From: a bacterium
GTDB taxonomy: Bacteria; UBA8248
Direction of reading: 5' to 3'
Assembly: GCA_965221165.1 (NCBI GenBank)
Contig: CBDCRP010000003.1
Coordinates: forward strand, 96,001-160,000
Length of the DNA stretch: 64,000 bases
Under the pieces are notes generated by a model. The model did no database searches. It saw only the letters and a program-made list of their open reading frames with translations, and was not told where the DNA came from. Of the stretch, positions 8,009 to 19,335 are shown in pieces. Both the position numbers and the translations under genes were made by a program. Position 1 is the stretch's first letter. Each line of letters begins with the position of its first letter.

Positions 8009-8905
8009 CTATTTCCTCAGCTTGGGGTCGAGCGCGTCGCGAAGGCCATCCCCCAGCAGGTTAAAGGAAACACCACCCCCATGAGGGCCAGACCTGGAAT
8101 GGTGAGCAGATGCGGCGCCAGGGCCATGTAGGAGCGGGCGTCGGCGAGCATGGTTCCCCACTCAGGTATGGGAGGGGGCACCCCGATGCCCAGGAAGCTC
8201 AATCCAGCCGCCACGCGAATGGAAGTCGCGATCAAAAAGGTGGACTGGACGACGATGGGGCCGAGCGTTCCCGGGAAGATGTGAAAAAACAGAACGCGGC
8301 GGCTGGAGCCACCCATGGCCTGGGCCGCTTCCACGAATTCGGTTTCCTTTAAGACGAAAACCGAGCTGCGCACAAGGCGGGCGTAGGTGGGGATCGCAAA
8401 AATGCCGACCGCCAGCATGATGTTCTCCATCCCCGTTCCGATGATGGCGATGAGAAGAATGGACAACAGGATGCGCGGGAAGGTGAGCATGACGTCCACC
8501 ACCCGCATGATGAGGTTGTCTATCCACCCTCCTAGATACCCGCCGATCAGACCGAGCAGGACGCCCCCGAGCGCCGCGATAAGGACGGAGAAAACGCCGA
8601 TTAACAAGGAGGTGCGGGCGCCGTAGATGATGCGGCTCAGAACGTCTCGCCCGAAATGATCCGTCCCGAAAGGATGGGCGAGGGAAGGGTCTTTCAGCGC
8701 CTCCTGAAAATTCGCTTTTATGGGGTCATAAGGTGCAATAATGGGCGCCAACAGGGAAACGCCGATGAACAAGAAAGACGAAAACACACCCGAGCACCGC
8801 GACTTTGTGCAGGAAGAGACGGCGCAAGGTATCGGTCCACATGCCGCGAATCGGCTCGCTTTCCACTTCCGGTATGAGGGGTGCGGTATTGACGGCCTGG
8901 CTCAT
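8009..8905 (-). pseudogene. dppC: Peptide/nickel ABC permease (DppC/OppC family), orphan, with two frameshifts (~8774 and ~8068)
   Basis: HPFGTDHFGRDVLSR and EFVEAA motifs. The N-terminus (MSQAV...RRLFLHKVAVLG) and C-terminus (FNLLGDGLRDALDPKLRK) are in other frames, shifted at T runs. May be a sequencing error rather than a true pseudogene. Confidence 0.8.
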
Positions 8906-8911
8906 TCCCCC

Positions 8912-8932
8912 GACCCTCAAGGTGGGGAGTGA
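8912..8932 (+). repeat. Fragment of a dispersed repeat also present at 27928-27948
   Basis: GACCCTCAAGGTGGGGAGTGA versus GACCCTCAAGGGGGGGAGTAA (19/21 identical). Confidence 0.6.
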
Positions 8933-9108
8933 TTCCAGATAGCGCGCTGCATTGACTGCGGGCCGGAATGAGGGTGACCATTCACCACCGAAGATGACGG
9001 CCTTGATGTCGCGGGGGCTTGCGTCTTACCATGGCGTCACCATCCTGAGACCCTTGCGATTGAGCCGAGGCATCCCCCTTGCGTATCAATCCCGACCGAG
9101 GAGTTGAA

Positions 9109-10378
9109 ATGCGCAGATTGTTTTTCATCGGACAAGGTCTGGCGCTCGCTTTCATGGTGTTCGCGACTGCCGCTTTCAGCAGTGGTTTCAAATCGGGGCC
9201 ACTCGGTGCGGTTGAGATCAAGCGCGGTCAGCCGATCGAAATCCGCGTTCTCCTTTCCGATACGGTCGTGCCGTCCGTGTCCCCTCTCATTCAGACCGCC
9301 ATCGAGATAGCGGTCAAGGACTTCGGTCCCATACACGGGCGCCGGGTCTCCACCGAAACCCTCGACGAGATGTGCTCGGGCGAGGGTGGGCGCGCGACGG
9401 CTGAAGCCGTCGTTGCCGACGCGCAGGTCGTCGGCGTCATCGGCACCTTGTGCTCCGGTGCAGCGGTGGAGGCGTCGCCCGTCATCAGCAAGGCGGGTCT
9501 ATCGATGGTATCGCCGTCCAACACGGCGCCTGTCCTCACGTCCGACCTGTCCGGGAATGCCGGTCCCGACTACCACAAGGGTTACTACCGTGTTGTGGAC
9601 AACGACCTCATCGAGGCAAGCATTGTCGCGCATTTCAGCTACGATGAACTTGGATTGCGCACGATGGTGACGATCCATGACGGTGACCCGTATACCAGCG
9701 CCATTTCGAACGCTTTTGCCGTTGCTTTCAGGAAGCATGGCGGCACTGTTCCGGTCATCGCCCAGGTGGCGAAAGGCCAGACCGACATGGCCGCCGTTCT
9801 CGCCCGGTTCGAGGAAGCCGCCCCCGATGGCGTGTTCATCCCGCTCTTTCCGGCGGAGGCAACGTCCTTGATTCGACAGGCAGCCCGGCTCGGCGCCCTG
9901 AAAAGCGTGAGGAGAATCAGTGGCGCGGCCACATTGGCGGCTCAGTTTCTTGCGTTGCCCGAATCGAAAGGCGTCTATTTCACGGGACCTGATCTTGGAG
10001 ACAGCAGGAACACGAACCAGGCGACAGGCAGAAGCGCTGCGGACGTACTCACCGAGTTCAAGGCAGCCTATGGAGGGCCTCCCGACGTCCCCGTACTGGG
10101 CGCACGGCTATGACGCTACGACACTGCTACTCTCGGCCATCAAGCAGATTTCGGTCGTAGATGGGGAGACGCTGTACATCGACCGTGCGGCGCTCCGTGA
10201 CGCATTGAATCGCACCGCAGGTTTCCAGGGCATCATCGGCACGCTTACCTGCGATGACTTCGGGGACTGCGGCACCGGCCGCAGCGTGATACATCTGCAC
10301 ATGGACTCCAGTGTCACAGACCCGTCACTCCTGCCCATCGTGTACAAGGGTGCGCGGGAGTCGCACCCGCCTCAATAG
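9109..10378 (+). CDS. Branched-chain amino acid ABC substrate-binding protein (LivJ/LivK-like), frameshifted near 10075
   Basis: Signal peptide plus motifs DEMCSGEGG, VIGTLCSGA, SPSNTAP and HDGDPY. The C-terminal part (YWAHGYDAT...GTLTCDDFGD) lies in ORF 9920-10378. Confidence 0.8.
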
Positions 10379-10790
10379 GCGTATTCCCGAAGCGCACTGG
10401 AAATCGGGGTTGGGACAAGGCGATCCGAGCAAATCGAATGATGCGCCGCACACCCCGTTACGACGCTGGCCCTGCCATCGAACAGGGCCTGGAACCGGCC
10501 CTGCAAAACCGCAACCCCCTCTCTTCTCAGTCAAAATTGATCCCCCACCGGCGTGACTGCGGGCTTGCGTCCTATATCCTGGAATCAAGATCAAGATAAG
10601 GAATATCGTTCTGAATGGATGAAAATATGTAAAAATTTGCAGTAGACCGGCAAAAATACATTTTCATCGAAAATAGAAATAATTATATATTTCAATTATT
10701 TACATATAATAGTTAAAGTATACAGACAAATATACTCGCTCATTTTCTCATTTTTGTTTCTTCAAGCCCCGTATTTACCCGCATTTAAGG

Positions 10791-10819
10791 TTGACTTCCC
10801 CAGAAAATATAAATAGAAT
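10791..10819 (+). promoter_or_regulatory. sigma70 promoter for the GntR-oxidoreductase operon
   Basis: TTGACT-N17-TAGAAT, preceded by an AT-rich, A-tract region. Confidence 0.7.
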
Positions 10820-10820
10820 C

Positions 10821-10858
10821 ATTGGTAGGACAATCCCATAATCCCTTTGTAGGATAAT
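10821..10858 (+). promoter_or_regulatory. Tandem FadR/GntR-type operator sites
   Basis: ATTGGTAGGACAAT (10821-10834) and a related TTTGTAGGATAAT (10846-10858) overlap the predicted transcription start. They resemble FadR-subfamily TGGT-N3-AC boxes. Confidence 0.55.
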
Positions 10859-10895
10859 ATGCGATTCTGAGGGACGTGAATAAGAGGAACTCTGT

Positions 10896-11636
10896 ATGCC
10901 CATTGCCGGCAGACTACATACGGTAAAGAAAACACGCGTCTATGAGGCCATTGTCGAGCAACTCACGGCATTGATACTCGAAGGCGAAATCAAATCCGGC
11001 GACAAGCTGCCATCCGAACGAGAGCTGTGCGAGCAATTCGGCGTTGGCCGCAACTCGGTTCGGGAAGCCACGCGCTCACTGGAATCCGCCAGACTCGTCG
11101 AGACGAGGCAGGGGGAAGGCACGTTCGTCACGGCGCACCCGGAATCTATGATCCACATTATTTCCGAAAAAGTCTCCTCCGATGCGGAAAGCGGCATCCA
11201 CCATATTTTCGAGGCGCGCATGGTCCTGGAGCCTCAAATTGTCGCTTTGGCGGCCGAGCGTGTGACAAACGCGGAAATGAAAAAACTGGAAAACACGCTT
11301 CAGCAACAACTCGATGCGGTGGAAGGCGGAGGCCTCGGCTTAGAGGAAGACACGCAATTTCACCTGGGCCTTGCCAAGTCTGCCCAAAATGAATTTTTGC
11401 ACCATCTACTGAGTAGCTTGCTTAATTCCCTGAGTGAGATGCGCGAACGCTCGCTTCGTAATAAAAGCGTGCGCTTTCGCTCATGGGAAGCGCATCAGAA
11501 AATTCTGGATGCCATCTTGACGAAAGACAGGAATCGGGCTATTGCCGCAATGATCAGCCACCTGGTGGAGATTGAGGGCAACGAGGTCGAATCCCATCTG
11601 AATCTGGAACAGCAGGCGCATATGGAATCTGTATAA
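10896..11636 (+). CDS. GntR family transcriptional regulator, FadR subfamily (FCD domain)
   Basis: GDKLPSERELCEQFGVGRNSVREA wHTH; FEARMVLE, DTQFH and HQKILDAI. Confidence 0.93.
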   Translation: MPIAGRLHTVKKTRVYEAIVEQLTALILEGEIKSGDKLPSERELCEQFGVGRNSVREATRSLESARLVETRQGEGTFVTAHPESMIHIISEKVSSDAESGIHHIFEARMVLEPQIVALAAERVTNAEMKKLENTLQQQLDAVEGGGLGLEEDTQFHLGLAKSAQNEFLHHLLSSLLNSLSEMRERSLRNKSVRFRSWEAHQKILDAILTKDRNRAIAAMISHLVEIEGNEVESHLNLEQQAHMESV

Positions 11637-11725
11637 ATCGATTTTCGAGGAATTACGGCTTTAAGTGGAATACGCTTTAAGGAAAAAGTCCAACTTCATC
11701 AACTCCAAAGTGGGGGGTATCGAAT

Positions 11726-12913
11726 GTGAGTGTAATATCATTTGAAGTAATCTACAGAGGGATTTTTCAGAAAAGCCTTGCAGTGAAAATTTCACGGTCC
11801 TTGATTCTCGCGGCCGTGAAAGAAGGAAAGCCGGGCATCTCCTTCGGGCGCTACAGCGATTCGCCCGAGCGCAACGGAATTCCGGCCAAGCAGTTCGGCT
11901 ACATCGCGGACAACGAAGAAGAGCTCGAGTCCGTGGCTGCGCAATACGAGCCGAAGCAGGTGGATATCTCCATCTGCGTGGACGATACGCTTTGTAAGGG
12001 CGTGGAGTCCTGGGCATGGTACGGTCTTCAGCCCATCAACGCCGTCACGAAGCCCGGCGGCACGCTGATAGTCACGTCCAACCAGAAAGAAGACGAACTG
12101 GTCAAGCATATCCACCGCAGGGAAACGCCTTATAAGCTCGCGATCATCCCTGGTGAGGCGAGCTTCGCCGGCCTTTGGGTGTACAAGAACGACGGCACGG
12201 ACGCGCGCTGCCTGGGCGCGGCCCTCAAGGCCGAGCCCACCATGTGCTCCATCGCATCTCTGGAGTCGGCGATTCGCGAGAACATCGGCACGGAAACGCA
12301 CGTCGAAGCCGCGCGCGAAGTCTATGAAGACTTGCGCCCCGTCGAAATCGAACCGGGCGAAGGCAACGACGAGGTGCCCTTCACCTTCGAACTCCTCAAG
12401 TGGCACGAAATGCGCCAGGGCGTCGTCATCGACGGCGTAGGAGGCCACGAGGGCTTCAGGGGCGGCGAGGATGGTTATGAGCCGGGAAGAAACCCCTACT
12501 TCAAGAAGTGGTCGACCCGGACGATGCGCCCGGTGCTATCCTTTGACAAATGCACCAAGTGCACTCTGTGCTGGGTCGCGTGCCCGGACACCTGTTTCGA
12601 CGTCACGCCTGACGGCTTCTTTGACGCCAACATGGAAGCCTGCTGCGGCTGCGGCGTTTGTGAAGCCATCTGCCCCGTCCCAGACTGCATCACGATGGTG
12701 AACGAAGTCGTTTTCGATGAACGCGACAGCCAGTGGCAGATGTGGCAGGAGAACAAGGAAGATTACGACAAGTACATGGACGAGAAAATCAGCACCGGCA
12801 AGATAGAAGGTCGTCATCCGATCACAGGCCTTGCCGGAGCTTTTTCGGGAGTAGGCCTCGCAACGGGCCACAACCCGGAAACGGCGAAAATCAAACCTCT
12901 AAAAGATCTTTAA
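11726..12913 (+). CDS. 2-oxoacid:ferredoxin oxidoreductase fused gamma+delta subunit (oxalate oxidoreductase delta-like)
   Basis: N-terminal gamma-type domain (YSDSPER, DDTL). C-terminal 2x[4Fe-4S] motifs CTKCTLCWVACP and CCGCGVCEAICP. Confidence 0.85.
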   Translation: MSVISFEVIYRGIFQKSLAVKISRSLILAAVKEGKPGISFGRYSDSPERNGIPAKQFGYIADNEEELESVAAQYEPKQVDISICVDDTLCKGVESWAWYGLQPINAVTKPGGTLIVTSNQKEDELVKHIHRRETPYKLAIIPGEASFAGLWVYKNDGTDARCLGAALKAEPTMCSIASLESAIRENIGTETHVEAAREVYEDLRPVEIEPGEGNDEVPFTFELLKWHEMRQGVVIDGVGGHEGFRGGEDGYEPGRNPYFKKWSTRTMRPVLSFDKCTKCTLCWVACPDTCFDVTPDGFFDANMEACCGCGVCEAICPVPDCITMVNEVVFDERDSQWQMWQENKEDYDKYMDEKISTGKIEGRHPITGLAGAFSGVGLATGHNPETAKIKPLKDL

Positions 12914-12926
12914 CAGGAGCTAAACG

Positions 12927-14144
12927 ATGGCGACAGCAATCGAACAACAACAAGGTGCAGGAGTTCATCTCCTCACCGGAAGCGAGGTCATGGCTCATAT
13001 CTGCCGCCTCGCCGACGTCGATGTCATCACGGCCTATCCCATCCGGCCGTATGACACCGTGATGCAGTATGTGTCCAAATTTATCGCAGAGGGCGATTTC
13101 GACGCCGACTATATTCCGGCGGAAAGCGAGCACGGCCAGTTCGAGATCGTCAAACACGCCTCGGCTTGCGGAGCGCGGGTGTTCACGGGTTCGAGCGGAG
13201 TGGGGTGGCTCTATGCGATGGAGCCGCTCGCCGTTACGGCCGGCCTGAGACTGCCCATGGTGGCCCTGGTCGGCTGCCGCGCGCTCGATGACCCCGGCGC
13301 ATTCGGCACCGAGCACAACGACGCCATGCTCGTTCGCGATTTGGGCTGGATGATCAACTTCCCGGACACGGCGCAGGAAGTCATCGAGCTCGGGCTTCTG
13401 GCATATCGCGTCGCCGAGGACCCGAGAGTCTTTCTGCCGTGCGCCATCGCGATGGACGGAGCGTTCCTGACCCACAGCCAGGCGACCGTGCGGCTGCCCG
13501 GCCAGGATGAAGTCAACGCATTCCTGCCTCCCTACGACAGGGGAGACCTGCTCCTTCACCCCGACAACCCCATCACCATCGCGCCGCAGGCGAATGAAGA
13601 CTGGCTCATGGAAGTCAGGCGACAAAGCAGCGAAGCGGCGAAAAACTCCTATACCGTGCTCAAGGAAGCCCACGCCGATTTCAGTAAAACTTTCGGCGTG
13701 AACACGAATCCCTTCCTCGATGAGTACATGACCGAGGATGCCGACATCGTGCTTTGCGGCGTAGGAACACTGAGTCTGCCGGTGAAAGTCGCCATTCGCG
13801 AAATGCGCAAGGAAGGCAAGAAAGTCGGCATGGTTCGCCTGAAATGGTTCCGCCCCTTCCCGACGGAAGAGTTGCGCGCATCGCTCTCGCGCTTCAAGGC
13901 GGTGGGCGTCATTGACCGCGACTATTCCTTTGGTTCACCCTATCACGGTGGAATCGTGTACAATGAAGTGAAAGCCGCCATGTACGGGGCGGACAAGGCG
14001 CCTCACATGAAAGGATTCGTATGCGGCCTCGGCGGCCGTGAGGTGCTGCTCGAAGACGTCAAACAGATGGCCGACAAGGTCATTTCCATGGGTCAGAACG
14101 ACACGGCCGACAACGAAGTCGACTGGATCGGAGTGAGGGGATAA
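12927..14144 (+). CDS. 2-oxoacid:ferredoxin oxidoreductase alpha subunit (oxalate oxidoreductase-like)
   Basis: YPIRP (not YPITP), ESEH, ARVFTGSSGVG, FRPFP and GLGGR. Confidence 0.9.
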   Translation: MATAIEQQQGAGVHLLTGSEVMAHICRLADVDVITAYPIRPYDTVMQYVSKFIAEGDFDADYIPAESEHGQFEIVKHASACGARVFTGSSGVGWLYAMEPLAVTAGLRLPMVALVGCRALDDPGAFGTEHNDAMLVRDLGWMINFPDTAQEVIELGLLAYRVAEDPRVFLPCAIAMDGAFLTHSQATVRLPGQDEVNAFLPPYDRGDLLLHPDNPITIAPQANEDWLMEVRRQSSEAAKNSYTVLKEAHADFSKTFGVNTNPFLDEYMTEDADIVLCGVGTLSLPVKVAIREMRKEGKKVGMVRLKWFRPFPTEELRASLSRFKAVGVIDRDYSFGSPYHGGIVYNEVKAAMYGADKAPHMKGFVCGLGGREVLLEDVKQMADKVISMGQNDTADNEVDWIGVRG

Positions 14145-14146
14145 TC

Positions 14147-15175
14147 ATGGCGGAAACTTCTGAATACAACATCGGAACACAGGAACTTCCCTTGATGGGG
14201 AAAGTGAACGCCATTCCCCAAAAAGCGGTGGAAGAGTATTTCACCAGCGGGCACAGAACGTGCCAGGGCTGTGAGAGCGCGCTCATCATGCGTCTCATGG
14301 CCAAGGCGGCGGGCCCTCGTTCCATCATCCTGGGCAGCACGGGCTGCATGTACGTGGCGAACACCACGTACTACAGCACCCCCTGGGTGGTGCCGTGGAT
14401 GCACACGCAGTTGGGTTCCTCGGGTTCGGCCGCAACGGGAACGGCGGCGGCTCTCCGCGCATTGATGCGCAAGGGCAAGATGAAGGAAGAGCCGATAAAC
14501 GTCATCGCCTTCTGCGGAGACGGCGGCGGCATCGACATGGGCGTGTCGTCCATTTCCGCGGCGCTGATGCACGCGAAGTACAATCTGGCGATCATCTGCT
14601 ACGACAACGAGTCGTACGCGAACACGGACATCCAGATTTCGGGCGCATCCCCCTGGGGCGCCAACACGACGTTCACGCCTCCGGGCAAGAAGTTCCGTAT
14701 CATGCACGATTGCTGGAAGAAGAACATCGCCGCCATGTACGCCGTTGGACACGTACGCTGCAACTACGTGGCGACTGCGGATGCCTCATATCCCGCGGAT
14801 CTGATCGACAAGGTCCGCAAAGCCCTGGCCGTCAAGGGGCCGGCGTTCGTGCACACGCTCGACCCCTGCCCGAAGGGTTGGGACTACGACCCCTTCTACT
14901 CCCATAAACTCGGCGAATTGGCCGTGGAAACCGGATTGTTCCCCCTCTGGGAGATGACGGACGGGGCGCTCACCTATACGGGCATTTCCGCCCGTCAGGT
15001 GTATGGCAAACGCTCCCGCAAGCCCGTGCGCGAGTATCTCGAGACGCAGGGCCGCTTCCACCATTTCCTAGATGAAGATTTTGAATTCTTCCAGGGGGAA
15101 GTCGATAAAATGTGGAACGACTGGATGGTTCCCGGCGTGATTCCCTTCAAGGTGAATGACCCGAGCAAAAAGTAA
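14147..15175 (+). CDS. 2-oxoacid:ferredoxin oxidoreductase beta subunit (TPP-binding)
   Basis: GHRTCQGC, TGCMYVAN, GDGG...YDNESYANT and PCPKGW. Confidence 0.92.
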   Translation: MAETSEYNIGTQELPLMGKVNAIPQKAVEEYFTSGHRTCQGCESALIMRLMAKAAGPRSIILGSTGCMYVANTTYYSTPWVVPWMHTQLGSSGSAATGTAAALRALMRKGKMKEEPINVIAFCGDGGGIDMGVSSISAALMHAKYNLAIICYDNESYANTDIQISGASPWGANTTFTPPGKKFRIMHDCWKKNIAAMYAVGHVRCNYVATADASYPADLIDKVRKALAVKGPAFVHTLDPCPKGWDYDPFYSHKLGELAVETGLFPLWEMTDGALTYTGISARQVYGKRSRKPVREYLETQGRFHHFLDEDFEFFQGEVDKMWNDWMVPGVIPFKVNDPSKK

Positions 15176-15206
15176 GTGATTCGCCAGTACGTTCGTTAGA
15201 AGTTTC

Positions 15207-15238
15207 GGGGCGGGGTCCGAAAGGGCCCCGCTCTTTTT
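15207..15238 (+). terminator. Rho-independent terminator
   Basis: GCGGGGTCC-GAAA-GGGCCCCGC followed by TCTTTTT. Confidence 0.8.
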
Positions 15239-16214: not shown

Positions 16215-17741
16215 TCAGGCCGAAGCGCCTCTACGAGAAATTCTGAATTTGAAAATCATGGGCAGCAGCGGGATGAAGAACAGGAGGGCGGAAACCATCA
16301 TCAATGCGGCGGCTATCGGGTGGTCTGCGAAGTCGAAGAAAATTCCGGGGCTGCCGTGGCTCATGATCATGCTCTGACGGAAAGTACGCTCCGTAAGACC
16401 CCCCAGCACCAGGGCCAACACCATCGGGGCGAGGGGATAATCCAGCTTGCGGAACACGTAGCCGATCGCGCCGAAAATGAACATCAGATACACGTCGAAC
16501 ATATCCTGGGTCGGCGAGAATCCACCCACCGCGCAGACGACCAGAATTATCGGAGCCAGAATCGTCATGGGCATTCTGAGCATCCAGATGAAGAGGGGAA
16601 CGGCGAAAATCGCGACGATGACCGCCATCGTGTTCGCGATATAGAGACTCCCCGTAAGGCCCCAGACGAACTCCGCGTTTTCGACGAACAGCCGGGGGCC
16701 CGGCACGAGGCCCCACACGAACAAGGCGCCGAGCATCACCGCCGTCGTCGGGGAGCCTGGAATTCCCAGCGTCAGCATGGGAAGCATGGAGCCCGTGCTC
16801 GCCGCGTTGTTGGCGCACTCGGGCGCGGCCACTCCCTCAATGGTGCCTTTGCCGAATTCGTCCTTATTTTTTGAAAACCTCTTCGCGATGCTGTAACTCA
16901 TGAAACTCGCAGGCGTCGCGCCGGCGGCGGGAAGCATGCCGACGAAAAACCCCAAAAGAGAACCTCGCAAAATGGTGGGGGAGTATTGCGAAAGGTCCTT
17001 CAAGGTCGAGATGACCTCCTTGATGCCGAGTTTGGCCTGGTAGCGCTCTTTTGTCTTGAACCCTTCTTCCAGGGTGTAGAAAATCTCACCGACGCCATAA
17101 ATCCCAATCGCCAGGACGAGGAAATTGATGCCGTGATAAAAACCCGTAATGCCTCCGAAGATCAGGCGCGGCGAGCCGCTCACGATGTCGGTGCCGACGG
17201 TCGACATGAGCAGACCGAGCATGGTGGCGATGAGCGTCTTGAGGGGGCTTTCCCCGCCCAATCCTGCAAACGTGGCGTACGCCAGCAGCACGACGGCGAA
17301 CTCTTCGGGCGGGCCGAAACGCAAGGCGAATTCAGCCAAAGGCGGTGCGAAGAAAGTGAAGAGGACGATGGATATCGTTCCGCCTATGAAACTGGCCACT
17401 GCCGCAGTCACAAGGGCATCGGCGGCTTTCCCTTTTCTCGCTAACGGGTAGCCGTCGAAAGTAGTCGCAACAGCCGTGGACGCTCCCGGGATATTCAGGG
17501 TGATCGAACTGATGGCGCCGCCGTACATGGCCCCGTAATAGATGGCGGCCAGGAAGATAATGGCGCTGGTAGGCGGAACCGCAAATGTAATGGGCAAGAG
17601 GATGGCGACGCCGTTCACGGAGCCCAACCCGGGCATCGCGCCAATGGCGATGCCCAAAACGACGCCGAACAGCGCCATCAAAAGATTTTGAGGCGAAAGC
17701 GCAATGCCCAGACCGTAAAATAGATTTCCGAGAATCTCCAA
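16215..17741 (-). CDS. tctA: Tripartite tricarboxylate transporter large membrane subunit
   Basis: GAMPGLG, YYGAMYGGAISSI, APECANNA and LTLGIPGS. Confidence 0.93.
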   Translation of the reverse strand: MEILGNLFYGLGIALSPQNLLMALFGVVLGIAIGAMPGLGSVNGVAILLPITFAVPPTSAIIFLAAIYYGAMYGGAISSITLNIPGASTAVATTFDGYPLARKGKAADALVTAAVASFIGGTISIVLFTFFAPPLAEFALRFGPPEEFAVVLLAYATFAGLGGESPLKTLIATMLGLLMSTVGTDIVSGSPRLIFGGITGFYHGINFLVLAIGIYGVGEIFYTLEEGFKTKERYQAKLGIKEVISTLKDLSQYSPTILRGSLLGFFVGMLPAAGATPASFMSYSIAKRFSKNKDEFGKGTIEGVAAPECANNAASTGSMLPMLTLGIPGSPTTAVMLGALFVWGLVPGPRLFVENAEFVWGLTGSLYIANTMAVIVAIFAVPLFIWMLRMPMTILAPIILVVCAVGGFSPTQDMFDVYLMFIFGAIGYVFRKLDYPLAPMVLALVLGGLTERTFRQSMIMSHGSPGIFFDFADHPIAAALMMVSALLFFIPLLPMIFKFRISRRGASA

Positions 17742-17821: not shown

Positions 17822-18313
17822 TCAATTCCAGTAAAACAAGAACTCCAGATATCCTTTTGGCAGAGGGATAATCAAAAATTTTTCGAAAATGTAATACACC
17901 ACGACAGGGACGCCTATCGCTACGGCAACACTCGTCCTGAATCTGTGATGTCCCACCACGAACAGACAATAAAAGAGGAAAAGAGCAGACGAGAAATACA
18001 CGGAAATAACGGTGATCAGTAGAATCATGATCATTCCGGGAAGGCCGACACGCATCAAATCGTGCAGACCTTCCCTGCTCATAAAAATTCCTGAACCCTC
18101 GCCAGTTGATTTATTCCGGTGGGAGAAAAACAGCGATTCCAGCAATACGAGCAACGACACGCCGGCTATCCCCAAAGAGAGCCAGAAGGGGAGGAACCCC
18201 CCTCCTGGCCCTTCTTTTGGAAGAATGCCGACAGGCAGTTCCGTAGATTTCCAGGCGACGCCAAGGCATACGAGAATCAGACCAATGGCGACAATCCTAT
18301 CCGCCCGCTGCAT
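17822..18313 (-). CDS. tctB: Tripartite tricarboxylate transporter small membrane subunit
   Basis: GPGGGFLPFW and a C-terminal FLIIPLPKG; lies between tctC and tctA. Confidence 0.88.
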   Translation of the reverse strand: MQRADRIVAIGLILVCLGVAWKSTELPVGILPKEGPGGGFLPFWLSLGIAGVSLLVLLESLFFSHRNKSTGEGSGIFMSREGLHDLMRVGLPGMIMILLITVISVYFSSALFLFYCLFVVGHHRFRTSVAVAIGVPVVVYYIFEKFLIIPLPKGYLEFLFYWN

Positions 18314-18330: not shown

Positions 18331-19335
18331 CTAATTCTTCAGCAAACCCATACCCATGAGCAGCTTCTTATGCTTTGCGTCCTCGGAGGCGAAGAATTTG
18401 CCCAGAGGAGCGCCACTCAGGCAAGCGCGATTCAGGGCCTTCTTTTCCGTATAGGTTTTCCATTCCCCGGAAGCGCACAACTTGGAGAATAAATCGCTAT
18501 ACCATTTCAGGGCATCCTTGGGGATGCCGCCGGGCGCGGTGATGCTGCGCTGCATGAAATACACGAGTTGCGGCTGGCCCATTTCCTTGAAAGTAGGGAC
18601 TTCCTTGAAAGCGGGAATCCGCGCCGGGGTCAGTGCGGCGATCGGCCGCATTTTGCCGGGATAGTGCGGCAGACCCTCGGATGGGTTGTTCACCGTCGAA
18701 TCGACATGCCCGCCGGCGAGATTTTTCGCCACGGTGCCGCCGCCACGGAAGGGCACGTAGGTGATCATGCCTTCTATGCCATACGCCTGCATCAGCATGT
18801 TGGTGACGAGTTGGTCTTCCTGCATCTTGCCCGTGCCGCCCATCGTCCATTTGCCCTTTTTGGCTTTCACGGCCTTCACGAAATCATCCATATTCTTGAT
18901 GCCTGACTTCGGGTTCACCCAGAGGAGAAAGGTGTCCATGGCCAGCCGGTAGACCGGCGTGAGTTTCGTGTAGTTCACCGGCAGCTTCCTCAAGGCCGGG
19001 GTGGTGAAAAAACTGTTCAACGTGACGAGAATCACGTGCGGGTTTCCTTTTTTCGAGAGCAGATAAAGCATCGCCTCGGCGCCGGACCCGCCTTTCTTGT
19101 TGATGGGCACCAGGGGCTGGGGCGACCATTTGTTCTGCGTGACGATTTTTTGCATGAGACGGGCGATGCGGTCCGCGCCGCCGCCTTTACCCGCCATGAT
19201 GATGAACTCAATCGGCCGCGACGGCTTCCATGCCGCGAGAGCCTGTGTGGTCCCCAGCGCAACCGTGATGAATAACGTCAGCGCGAGGGTGAGGAACGGA
19301 ATAGCGCATCTCGAAACTTTCGGCGATTTCATCAT
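18331..19335 (-). CDS. tctC: Tripartite tricarboxylate transporter substrate-binding protein (Bug/TctC)
   Basis: Signal peptide, GGGADRIAR, NKKGGSG, YVPFRGGG and VPTFKE. Confidence 0.92.
   Translation of the reverse strand: MMKSPKVSRCAIPFLTLALTLFITVALGTTQALAAWKPSRPIEFIIMAGKGGGADRIARLMQKIVTQNKWSPQPLVPINKKGGSGAEAMLYLLSKKGNPHVILVTLNSFFTTPALRKLPVNYTKLTPVYRLAMDTFLLWVNPKSGIKNMDDFVKAVKAKKGKWTMGGTGKMQEDQLVTNMLMQAYGIEGMITYVPFRGGGTVAKNLAGGHVDSTVNNPSEGLPHYPGKMRPIAALTPARIPAFKEVPTFKEMGQPQLVYFMQRSITAPGGIPKDALKWYSDLFSKLCASGEWKTYTEKKALNRACLSGAPLGKFFASEDAKHKKLLMGMGLLKN

Follow-up and report, generated by a model that had tools for sequence, protein, structure and literature searches.

The operon and its control sites

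This study concerns an operon in a 64,000-nucleotide stretch of bacterial DNA, referred to as the window (contig CBDCRP010000003.1 of assembly GCA_965221165.1, positions 96,001 to 160,000; GTDB lineage UBA8248). The operon spans positions 10791-15234 and contains a promoter-like site, a gene for a GntR/FCD regulator, the genes for a gamma-delta fusion, an alpha and a beta subunit, and a strong terminator (Table 1). The domain architecture of alpha, beta and the ferredoxin domain (POR_N, PFOR_II, TPP_enzyme_C) places the enzyme in the superfamily of 2-oxoacid:ferredoxin oxidoreductases (OFOR). At somewhat better than even odds (a probability of about 0.55), we propose that the operon encodes a coenzyme A (CoA)-independent oxalate:ferredoxin oxidoreductase, dependent on thiamine pyrophosphate (TPP) and [4Fe-4S] clusters. 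It would represent a distinct and widespread sister clade of the oxalate oxidoreductase (OOR) of Moorella thermoacetica, with a different arrangement of acidic residues.

A preliminary description of this DNA took the regulator, the three subunit genes and the terminator for a self-contained operon. The open reading frames, the family matches and the terminal hairpin bear this out. The promoter-like site TTGACT-17-TAGAAT is suggestive by its placement only, since the region holds three promoter-like sites against 2.5 in shuffled sequence, which is no excess. The motif TKGTAGGAYAA occurs twice in the 64-kb window (0.04 expected). A single copy is present in each of 15 out of 167 fetched loci, always directly 5' of the regulator gene and about 2.1 kb upstream of alpha. 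The pair is a candidate operator of the GntR/FCD regulator, and we take the motif to resemble the FadR-subfamily operator consensus. Ahead of the regulator gene lies an AT-rich intergenic stretch of 330 bp (10560-10890), in a genome of about 57% GC, which houses the promoter-like site and both operator-like repeats.

The nearest NCBIfam models of the regulator are NanR, LldR and PdhR, all of which score under their cut-offs. Apart from the Fer4 families, gamma-delta has no Pfam match at E<=0.001, and the gamma domain is unmatched. Beta carries the TPP motif GDGGG...YDNESYAN, and its proximal-cluster cysteines are located in GHRTCQGC, GCMYV and PCPKGW.

Table 1. Features of the operon and of the genes that follow it (window coordinates)
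Feature	Position	Strand	Remarks
Promoter-like site TTGACT-17-TAGAAT	10791..10819	+	Upstream of regulator gene; 10/12 consensus matches
Direct copies of TKGTAGGAYAA (n=2)	10823-10833 and 10847-10857	+	Just 3' of the -10 element
Regulator, GntR helix-turn-helix + FCD effector domain (FadR subfamily), 246 aa	10896..11636	+	GntR 83 bits, FCD 91 bits
Gamma-delta fusion subunit, 395 aa	11726..12913	+	Divergent domain III, 2x[4Fe-4S] ferredoxin domain, 65-aa C-terminal tail
CxxCxxCxxxCP motifs of gamma-delta (n=2)	12551-12586 and 12641-12676	+	Motif scan
Alpha subunit, 405 aa	12927..14144	+	POR_N + PFOR_II
YPIRPYD of alpha	13035..13055	+	Arg40 = OOR Arg31; Asp43 specific to clade A, OOR Thr34
Switch loop RALDDPGAFG of alpha	13278..13307	+	Arg118 = OOR Arg109; aligns with OOR RTLDPPGDFG
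Beta subunit, 342 aa	14147..15175	+	TPP_enzyme_C
YDNESYANTDIQ of beta	14600..14635	+	Aligns with OOR YDNESYANTGIQ; NTD where OOR has NTG
Intrinsic-terminator-like hairpin	15207..15234	+	12 bp with 9 GC, then T-run; closes the operon
FGE-sulfatase-domain protein, 296 aa	15276..16166	+	PF03781, 156 bits; beyond the operon terminator
TctA	16215-17741	-	Tripartite carboxylate importer, convergent to the operon
TctB	17822-18313	-	Tripartite carboxylate importer, convergent to the operon
TctC	18331-19335	-	Tripartite carboxylate importer, convergent to the operon

Active-site residues compared with Moorella OOR

We aligned the window subunits by phmmer to chains of the Protein Data Bank (PDB), with the Moorella OOR chains of 5c4i as reference. 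This enzyme is the top PDB match for alpha (5c4i_A, E 1e-96, 327.2 bits), for beta (5c4i_C, E 3.8e-84) and for gamma-delta (OOR delta, 5c4i_B, E 2.6e-19, over residues 9-330). The runner-up structure is 9bt4, a pyruvate:ferredoxin oxidoreductase (PFOR) of the Methanosarcina type, with 205.6 bits for alpha.

Like Moorella OOR (PDB 5c4i, 5exd, 5exe), the window enzyme consists of three subunits, one of which unites domains III and V. Both OOR arginines, the TPP motif with YDNESYAN, and all cluster cysteine motifs checked, those of three [4Fe-4S] clusters, are kept. GHRTC and GCMYVANT are common to the two beta subunits. The preliminary description had named YPIRP and these beta motifs as OOR features, and the alignments to 5c4i agree. 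On the other hand, the window gamma-delta is longer than its OOR counterpart (395 vs 315 aa) and only weakly similar to it.

Superimposed on these shared features are changes at the active site. In the alpha switch loop, Asp122 stands in place of OOR Pro113 and Ala125 in place of OOR Asp116, so the earlier claim that the loop aspartate is replaced, with a new aspartate upstream, holds in the alignment to 5c4i_A. At the YPIRP motif, Thr34 of OOR is changed to Asp. In beta, the NTD motif that had been noticed before corresponds to Asp161 (nucleotides 14627-14629) in place of OOR Gly145, two residues past Asn143. About 20 further clade-fixed changes in alpha set the window enzyme apart from Moorella OOR.

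According to PMC5020499, Arg31 of YPIRP binds the anionic substrate, Arg109 is a conserved arginine, and Arg31 and Asp116 take part in a bait-and-switch mechanism in which a plug loop moves. The residue lost from alpha is thus one to which the literature gives a part in the mechanism. The accessible part of a review of PFOR diversity (PMC13768988) mentions OOR just as a family member, and nothing was found there on Asn996, Thr31 or neighbouring residues.

Database names point in another direction. The homologues carry the source name 'pyruvate ferredoxin oxidoreductase', and the PorA and PorB models match the window subunits with 327 and 279.5 bits, which would suit an ordinary pyruvate or 2-ketoisovalerate ferredoxin oxidoreductase. 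We regard such an identity as very improbable. Both scores lie under the OOR scores given below and under the models' own NCBIfam cut-offs (550 for PorA and 405 for PorB). Alpha has YPIRP instead of YPITP, with Arg for Thr, the gamma domain is without Pfam match, and the tree described below splits the YPIRP group from the 27 YPITP-type rows with a support of 100. By eye, gamma presumably also lacks the glycine-rich loop of PorC-type subunits. The four-subunit archaeal-type PFOR (PorABDG; PDB 9bt4) has the same fold and the same cofactors and is the second-best structural relative. Unlike the window enzyme, it has YPITP and no second arginine, its gamma and delta are separate, and it uses CoA.

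A sister clade of OOR

A homologue search over 5.8 billion proteins revealed that the remodelled loop is a fixed signature of a large family and not a peculiarity of this organism. We used the best 120 homologues listed, which are 64-95% identical to the query. YPIRP and RALDDPGAFG are both exact in all 120. Among the taxa in their source names are Nitrospinota, Tectomicrobia, NC10, Acidobacteria, Myxococcales, Armatimonadota and Binatia. Of 150 proteins that each represent a cluster at 50% identity, 26 carry the LDDPGAFG loop, nine the LDPPGDFG loop and one (P0129) a third form, DDPGNFA. The remaining representatives are 86 of YPI(T/S)P types, 25 in which the region is missing, and three YPIRP fragments. 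P0129, of 414 aa, is a third loop type of the YPIRP group (FPIRP ... RALDDPGNFAMEW) and branches separately from the two clades described next.

The alpha tree, from a quick IQ-TREE search under the PMSF model, comprises 65 subunits, with the Moorella sequence itself left out. It contains a single YPIRP group (SH-aLRT 100), with the 27 YPITP-type rows outside. Within this group we distinguish clade A (22 rows, support 98), clade B (15 rows, support 100) and P0129. Clade B is tied to Moorella OOR through P0130, which scores 511.7 bits on 5c4i_A. The window enzyme lies in clade A, which is a separate sister of the OOR clade B and is not nested within OOR. The preliminary description had called it an OOR-clade enzyme; the relationship to OOR, and not to PFOR, stands, and the placement inside the OOR clade does not. 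Compared with enzymes of the Moorella type, the window enzyme possesses YPIRP with Arg31, Arg109, the subunit layout, the TPP motif and three [4Fe-4S] clusters. It lacks Asp116, is placed outside the OOR clade, and scores below the OOR equivalog cut-offs of NCBIfam (alpha 364.4 vs 500, beta 339 vs 590, delta 95.6 vs 230).

We then compared alpha and beta motifs across 161 sources: the window itself, 80 window-type loci from genomes, and 80 OOR-type loci from metagenomes (found with P0130 as query). RTLDPPGDFG is paired with NTG in 70 sources and RALDDPGAFG with NTD in 69; another 20 miss one or both motifs, mostly where the partner gene is cut or missing. Loop type in alpha and NTD/NTG type in beta thus co-vary in 139 of 139 paired loci. 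Two sources appeared to hold hybrid alpha/beta pairs, which we rejected, as each locus holds both operons.

At 23 alpha positions, clades A and B are each at least 97% fixed and differ from each other (187 distinct A and 81 distinct B alphas). In window numbering, with the A residue first, these are D43T, F72L, E73S, H77G, W94V, V103P, V115I, G116A, A119T, D122P, A125D, N131T, A163G, L181V, T182S, S184I, H211D, A219G, E224P, W226Q, D330E, R331T and D332N. Compared by eye, Moorella OOR sides with clade B at 20 of them. Clade A has thus gained the acids D43, E73, D122, E224, D330, D332 and beta D161, besides losing Asp116. Beta has 43 clade-fixed positions. Because the B sample is narrow there (minimum identity 81%), only those beta positions that also hold for Moorella deserve weight, for example S34P, Q40A, E43G, S44P, M48Y, R58N and D161G.

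Gene context of the two clades

Neighbouring genes were counted within 7 kb of alpha (blastp E<=1e-20, at least 60% query coverage, at least 35% identity, clustered open reading frames). Only loci flanked on one side by 4 kb or more entered the counts, 72 of clade A and 55 of clade B (Table 2).

Table 2. Gene families near the alpha genes of clades A and B
Family	Clade A	Clade B
OxlT-type major facilitator superfamily (MFS) transporter	29/72	18/55
TctA / TctC	20/72 each	not among families found
FGE-like	18/72	not among families found
PanE-like reductase	8/72	11/55
AMP-forming CoA ligase	7/72	1/55
Phosphoenolpyruvate carboxykinase (PEPCK)	4/72	2/55
Class-V aminotransferase	3/72	1/55
GltD-like NAD(P)-binding protein fused to ferredoxin delta domain	not among families found	48/55
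CDC48-type AAA ATPase	not among families found	30/55
Neither OxlT nor Tct	23/72	

Representatives of the OxlT-type transporters score 527.6 bits (by clade A) and 483 bits (by clade B) on TIGR04259, the oxalate/formate MFS antiporter model with a cut-off of 335. One clade-A neighbour, aligned with OxlT 8hpj_A (204.5 bits), keeps seven of the nine oxalate-contacting residues that are listed in PMC10070484. The kept residues are Gln34, Tyr35, Tyr124, Tyr150, Arg272, Trp324 and Lys355; at the remaining two, one aromatic residue replaces another (Phe for Tyr328, Tyr for Trp352). The same source describes two basic OxlT residues as conserved family-wide. Because these basic residues are kept across the whole family, the residue match is supportive and not decisive.

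In the window, the neighbouring transporter is the convergent TctABC, which the preliminary description had pointed out. This adjacency is conserved; beyond the window's lineage it is present at a Rhodospirillaceae locus (L045) and, with TctC only, at a Myxococcota locus (L046), and it extends to at least three lineages overall. TctABC is a candidate for the substrate supply of the window enzyme. In comparison with solved structures, the relatives of the regulator and of TctC are too distant to name a ligand, and the nearest solved TctC proteins score at most 90 bits.

The operons of the two clades share a regulator family. A homologous regulator lies upstream of 57 clade-A and 39 clade-B operons, and the A- and B-linked regulators form one family, with a median A-B identity of 46% and a maximum of 90%. 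Within locus L158, which has both, they are 64% identical. On a FastTree tree they interleave, with five label changes, of which the starred branches force at least two. The context of a GntR regulator with an OxlT-type transporter is common to clade A and to the soil OOR-type operons.

The soil clade-B operons (L081-L160; alpha 86-98% identical to P0130) belong to the same YPIRP group as clade A, and they have the same regulator family and OxlT- and PanE-type neighbours. Clades A and B sometimes occur in the same genome or locus. Unlike clade A, the soil clade B keeps RTLDPPGDFG and NTG (70 of 70 paired loci) and differs in its electron-output subunits. Clade-B operons (L127:4490-8209 and 47 others, for example L088, L119 and L167:1818-9065) have a separate gamma subunit of 216 aa, and a 610-aa GltD-like NAD(P)-binding flavoprotein (NF009410, 516 bits) carries, fused to its C-terminus, the ferredoxin delta domain. 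A CDC48-type AAA ATPase gene usually precedes them. With these subunits, the soil clade-B operon looks like an NAD(P)-linked oxalate oxidoreductase, and no description of an enzyme of that type was found in the literature searched.

Ten clade-A genomes were searched for further copies, and three of them have two or three A-type alphas. The four second-copy loci from these three genomes each consist of regulator, gamma-delta, alpha, beta and OxlT.

Three gene families near the alpha genes may be connected with the fate of oxalate. PMC12686821 describes panE2 as an oxalyl-CoA reductase and FAT2 as an oxalyl-CoA synthetase; the enzyme names for the route from oxalate through oxalyl-CoA and glyoxylate to glycine also come from PMC13409138. 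At some loci, the upstream genes for a class-V aminotransferase, an AMP-forming ligase and a PanE-like reductase would fit this route.

Oxalate or another substrate

The same genes can be read differently. The aminotransferase and PanE-like genes also suit glyoxylate metabolism, and clade A may oxidise glyoxylate, oxamate, mesoxalate, oxaloacetate or a similar small anionic 2-oxoacid or oxalate analogue, with clade B as the true oxalate enzyme and both in one pathway. Such a division of labour would accommodate the loss of Asp116, the acidic, His and Trp residues newly fixed in the alpha and beta subunits, and the scores below every OOR equivalog cut-off. It would also agree with the coexistence of the two kinds of operon, each accompanied by a regulator of its own, and with the tripartite tricarboxylate transporter (TTT), in place of OxlT, as the partner of the window's lineage.

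Other evidence argues against it, and we consider a change of substrate possible but rather unlikely. The two arginines that grip the carboxylates of oxalate never vary, and Arg31 would be dispensable for a monocarboxylate such as glyoxylate. The two clades adjoin OxlT-type transporters with oxalate-binding residues equally often, and their regulators are interleaved on the tree. The coexistence of A and B hints at non-redundant roles. However, the output subunits differ (ferredoxin-type gamma-delta in clade A, a GltD-like NAD(P)-binding fusion in clade B), and this difference could by itself account for keeping both, without a change of substrate. Because OxlT-type transporters adjoin clade A at least as often as clade B, the context favours oxalate over a new substrate. 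Of the two options left by the preliminary description, a relocated acid or a different substrate, the context leans to the first, in the form of oxalate with a different acid arrangement.

A more distant possibility is that the enzyme acts mainly in another role, such as a reductive or anabolic reaction or one on a substrate unrelated to oxalate, and that the transporter lies nearby by chance. The 23 clade-A loci with neither OxlT nor Tct nearby, and a host genome with no recognisable oxalate pathway, are in keeping with it. Nevertheless, regulator, OFOR and carboxylate transporter are repeatedly linked in different phyla, and we judge such a role improbable.

Several observations weigh against the oxidation of oxalate by clade A. 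The equivalent of Asp116 is Ala in every clade-A sequence, and PMC5020499 calls Asp116 and Arg31 central to the OOR mechanism. The NCBIfam OOR equivalogs (NF045790-NF045792) are the best models, yet all three subunits fall under the cut-offs. Clades A and B have different fixed residues at 23 positions of alpha, and at 20 of them clade A also differs from Moorella OOR (by eye). The motif covariation comes from one ancestral split, not from repeated events, and therefore is by itself no proof of compensation. Besides, a clade-B alpha (88% identity to P0130) is also present in two of the ten clade-A genomes searched, and clade-A and clade-B operons adjoin in four metagenome loci. The basic residues of OxlT are family-wide according to PMC10070484, and hence do not prove oxalate. 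Finally, the host is without independent sign of oxalate use, because its genome yielded no OxlT homologue by tblastn and no oxc or frc above cut-off.

Host genome and distribution

The host genome (3.69 Mb in three contigs, 96% complete, 8.5% contamination) contains a haem-copper oxidase subunit I (COX1, 504 bits), and CdhC (acetyl-CoA synthase) was not found in it. Unlike the host of Moorella OOR, an anaerobic acetogen, the window host thus has a cytochrome oxidase, in line with the earlier remark that this organism shows no sign of being an acetogen. In the host genome, neither oxc nor frc has a match above cut-off (best 195 vs 739 and 301 vs 504, respectively), and tblastn with clade-locus proteins detected no OxlT homologue and no clade-B alpha. 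The genome is rich in paralogues of CaiB/BaiF-type CoA-transferases; the frc model matches 26 times, never above cut-off.

With the OOR model (E<=1e-10), the only OFOR alpha matches in the host are the window gene and another copy, which lies at an end of contig C2. This second copy (C2:1-5504, L161) comprises the upstream gene, the regulator, gamma-delta, alpha and part of beta. Compared with window positions 8912-14458, its DNA shows 92-96% identity over 5.5 kb, and its alpha protein 98%. We rejected a paralogue, given that the other 38 genomes of the phylum with a match have one each and that contamination is 8.5%; the second copy is probably a strain variant or an assembly duplicate.

The clade-A gene is near-core in the host phylum. 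A clade-A alpha (E<=1e-120) is present in 39 of 51 genomes, in 22 of the 29 high-quality ones and in 13 of 15 genera. More widely, among the matches listed, at least 500 of 576 pattern-matched stretches encode a relative. Metatranscriptome contigs from four of four runs (three studies, one labelled 'sponge metagenome') overlie gamma-delta, alpha and beta, and some pieces are 99-100% identical. These contigs fit expression of the operon and do not prove its transcription. They leave positions 10700-11460 uncovered, which has no bearing either way.

Other genes next to the operon

The FGE-like gene downstream of the terminator adjoins 18 of the 72 clade-A loci, and in the gene-order maps these belong solely to the window's own lineage. 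Weak relatives of the window FGE-sulfatase-domain protein include EgtB, SenA and PvdO.

Upstream of the operon, a gene for a periplasmic binding protein (Peripla_BP_6; 9079-10378, + strand) ends early, covering profile positions 17-276 of 343. A 152-aa open reading frame overlaps it in another frame and would supply the lost C-terminus, which may reflect a frameshift or a pseudogene. According to the gene-order maps, this gene and a lone ABC permease gene (8017-8787, - strand) both lack a counterpart at the corresponding position in L001, the closest relative.

Proposed mechanism and implications

On the basis of these comparisons, we propose the following model for an oxalate-oxidising clade-A enzyme. 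A small dicarboxylate, most likely oxalate, would be imported by the neighbouring TctABC in the window's lineage and by an OxlT-type MFS transporter in Acidobacteriota and Myxococcota. The GntR/FCD protein, acting as a repressor, would sense the substrate and then leave the two TKGTAGGAYAA sites just 3' of the promoter. Arg40 and Arg118 (OOR Arg31 and Arg109) would hold the substrate at the TPP site. Two decarboxylations would yield two CO2, and two electrons would pass through the three clusters to ferredoxin. Since the mobile Asp116 is absent, we speculate that its electrostatic role passes to clade-fixed acids, namely alpha Asp122, alpha Asp43 and/or beta Asp161.

To our knowledge, OOR is known from one biochemically studied enzyme, that of an anaerobic acetogen. 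The sister clade described here, without the mechanistic Asp, spans hundreds of genomes of aerobic or facultative bacteria, and no paper on clade-A enzymes was found in the literature searched, with supplements and subscription papers outside its reach. In the accessible part of a 2024 review of environmental oxalotrophy, the markers are oxc, frc, oxdC and oxlT, and OOR is not used.

If clade A acts on another small anionic 2-oxoacid, CoA-independent OFORs would gain a new substrate class, one that is near-core in a partly sponge-associated marine phylum. The enzyme would also be common among the Acidobacteriota and Myxococcota of soils, and would work next to true OOR within shared gene clusters. 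For the bait-and-switch mechanism, clade A represents a natural 'D116A' experiment. We consider that clade A, a large undescribed sister group of Moorella OOR, probably still oxidises oxalate in aerobic marine and soil bacteria. If so, CoA-independent oxalate oxidation would be a widespread and so far unsurveyed route in soils and marine symbioses.

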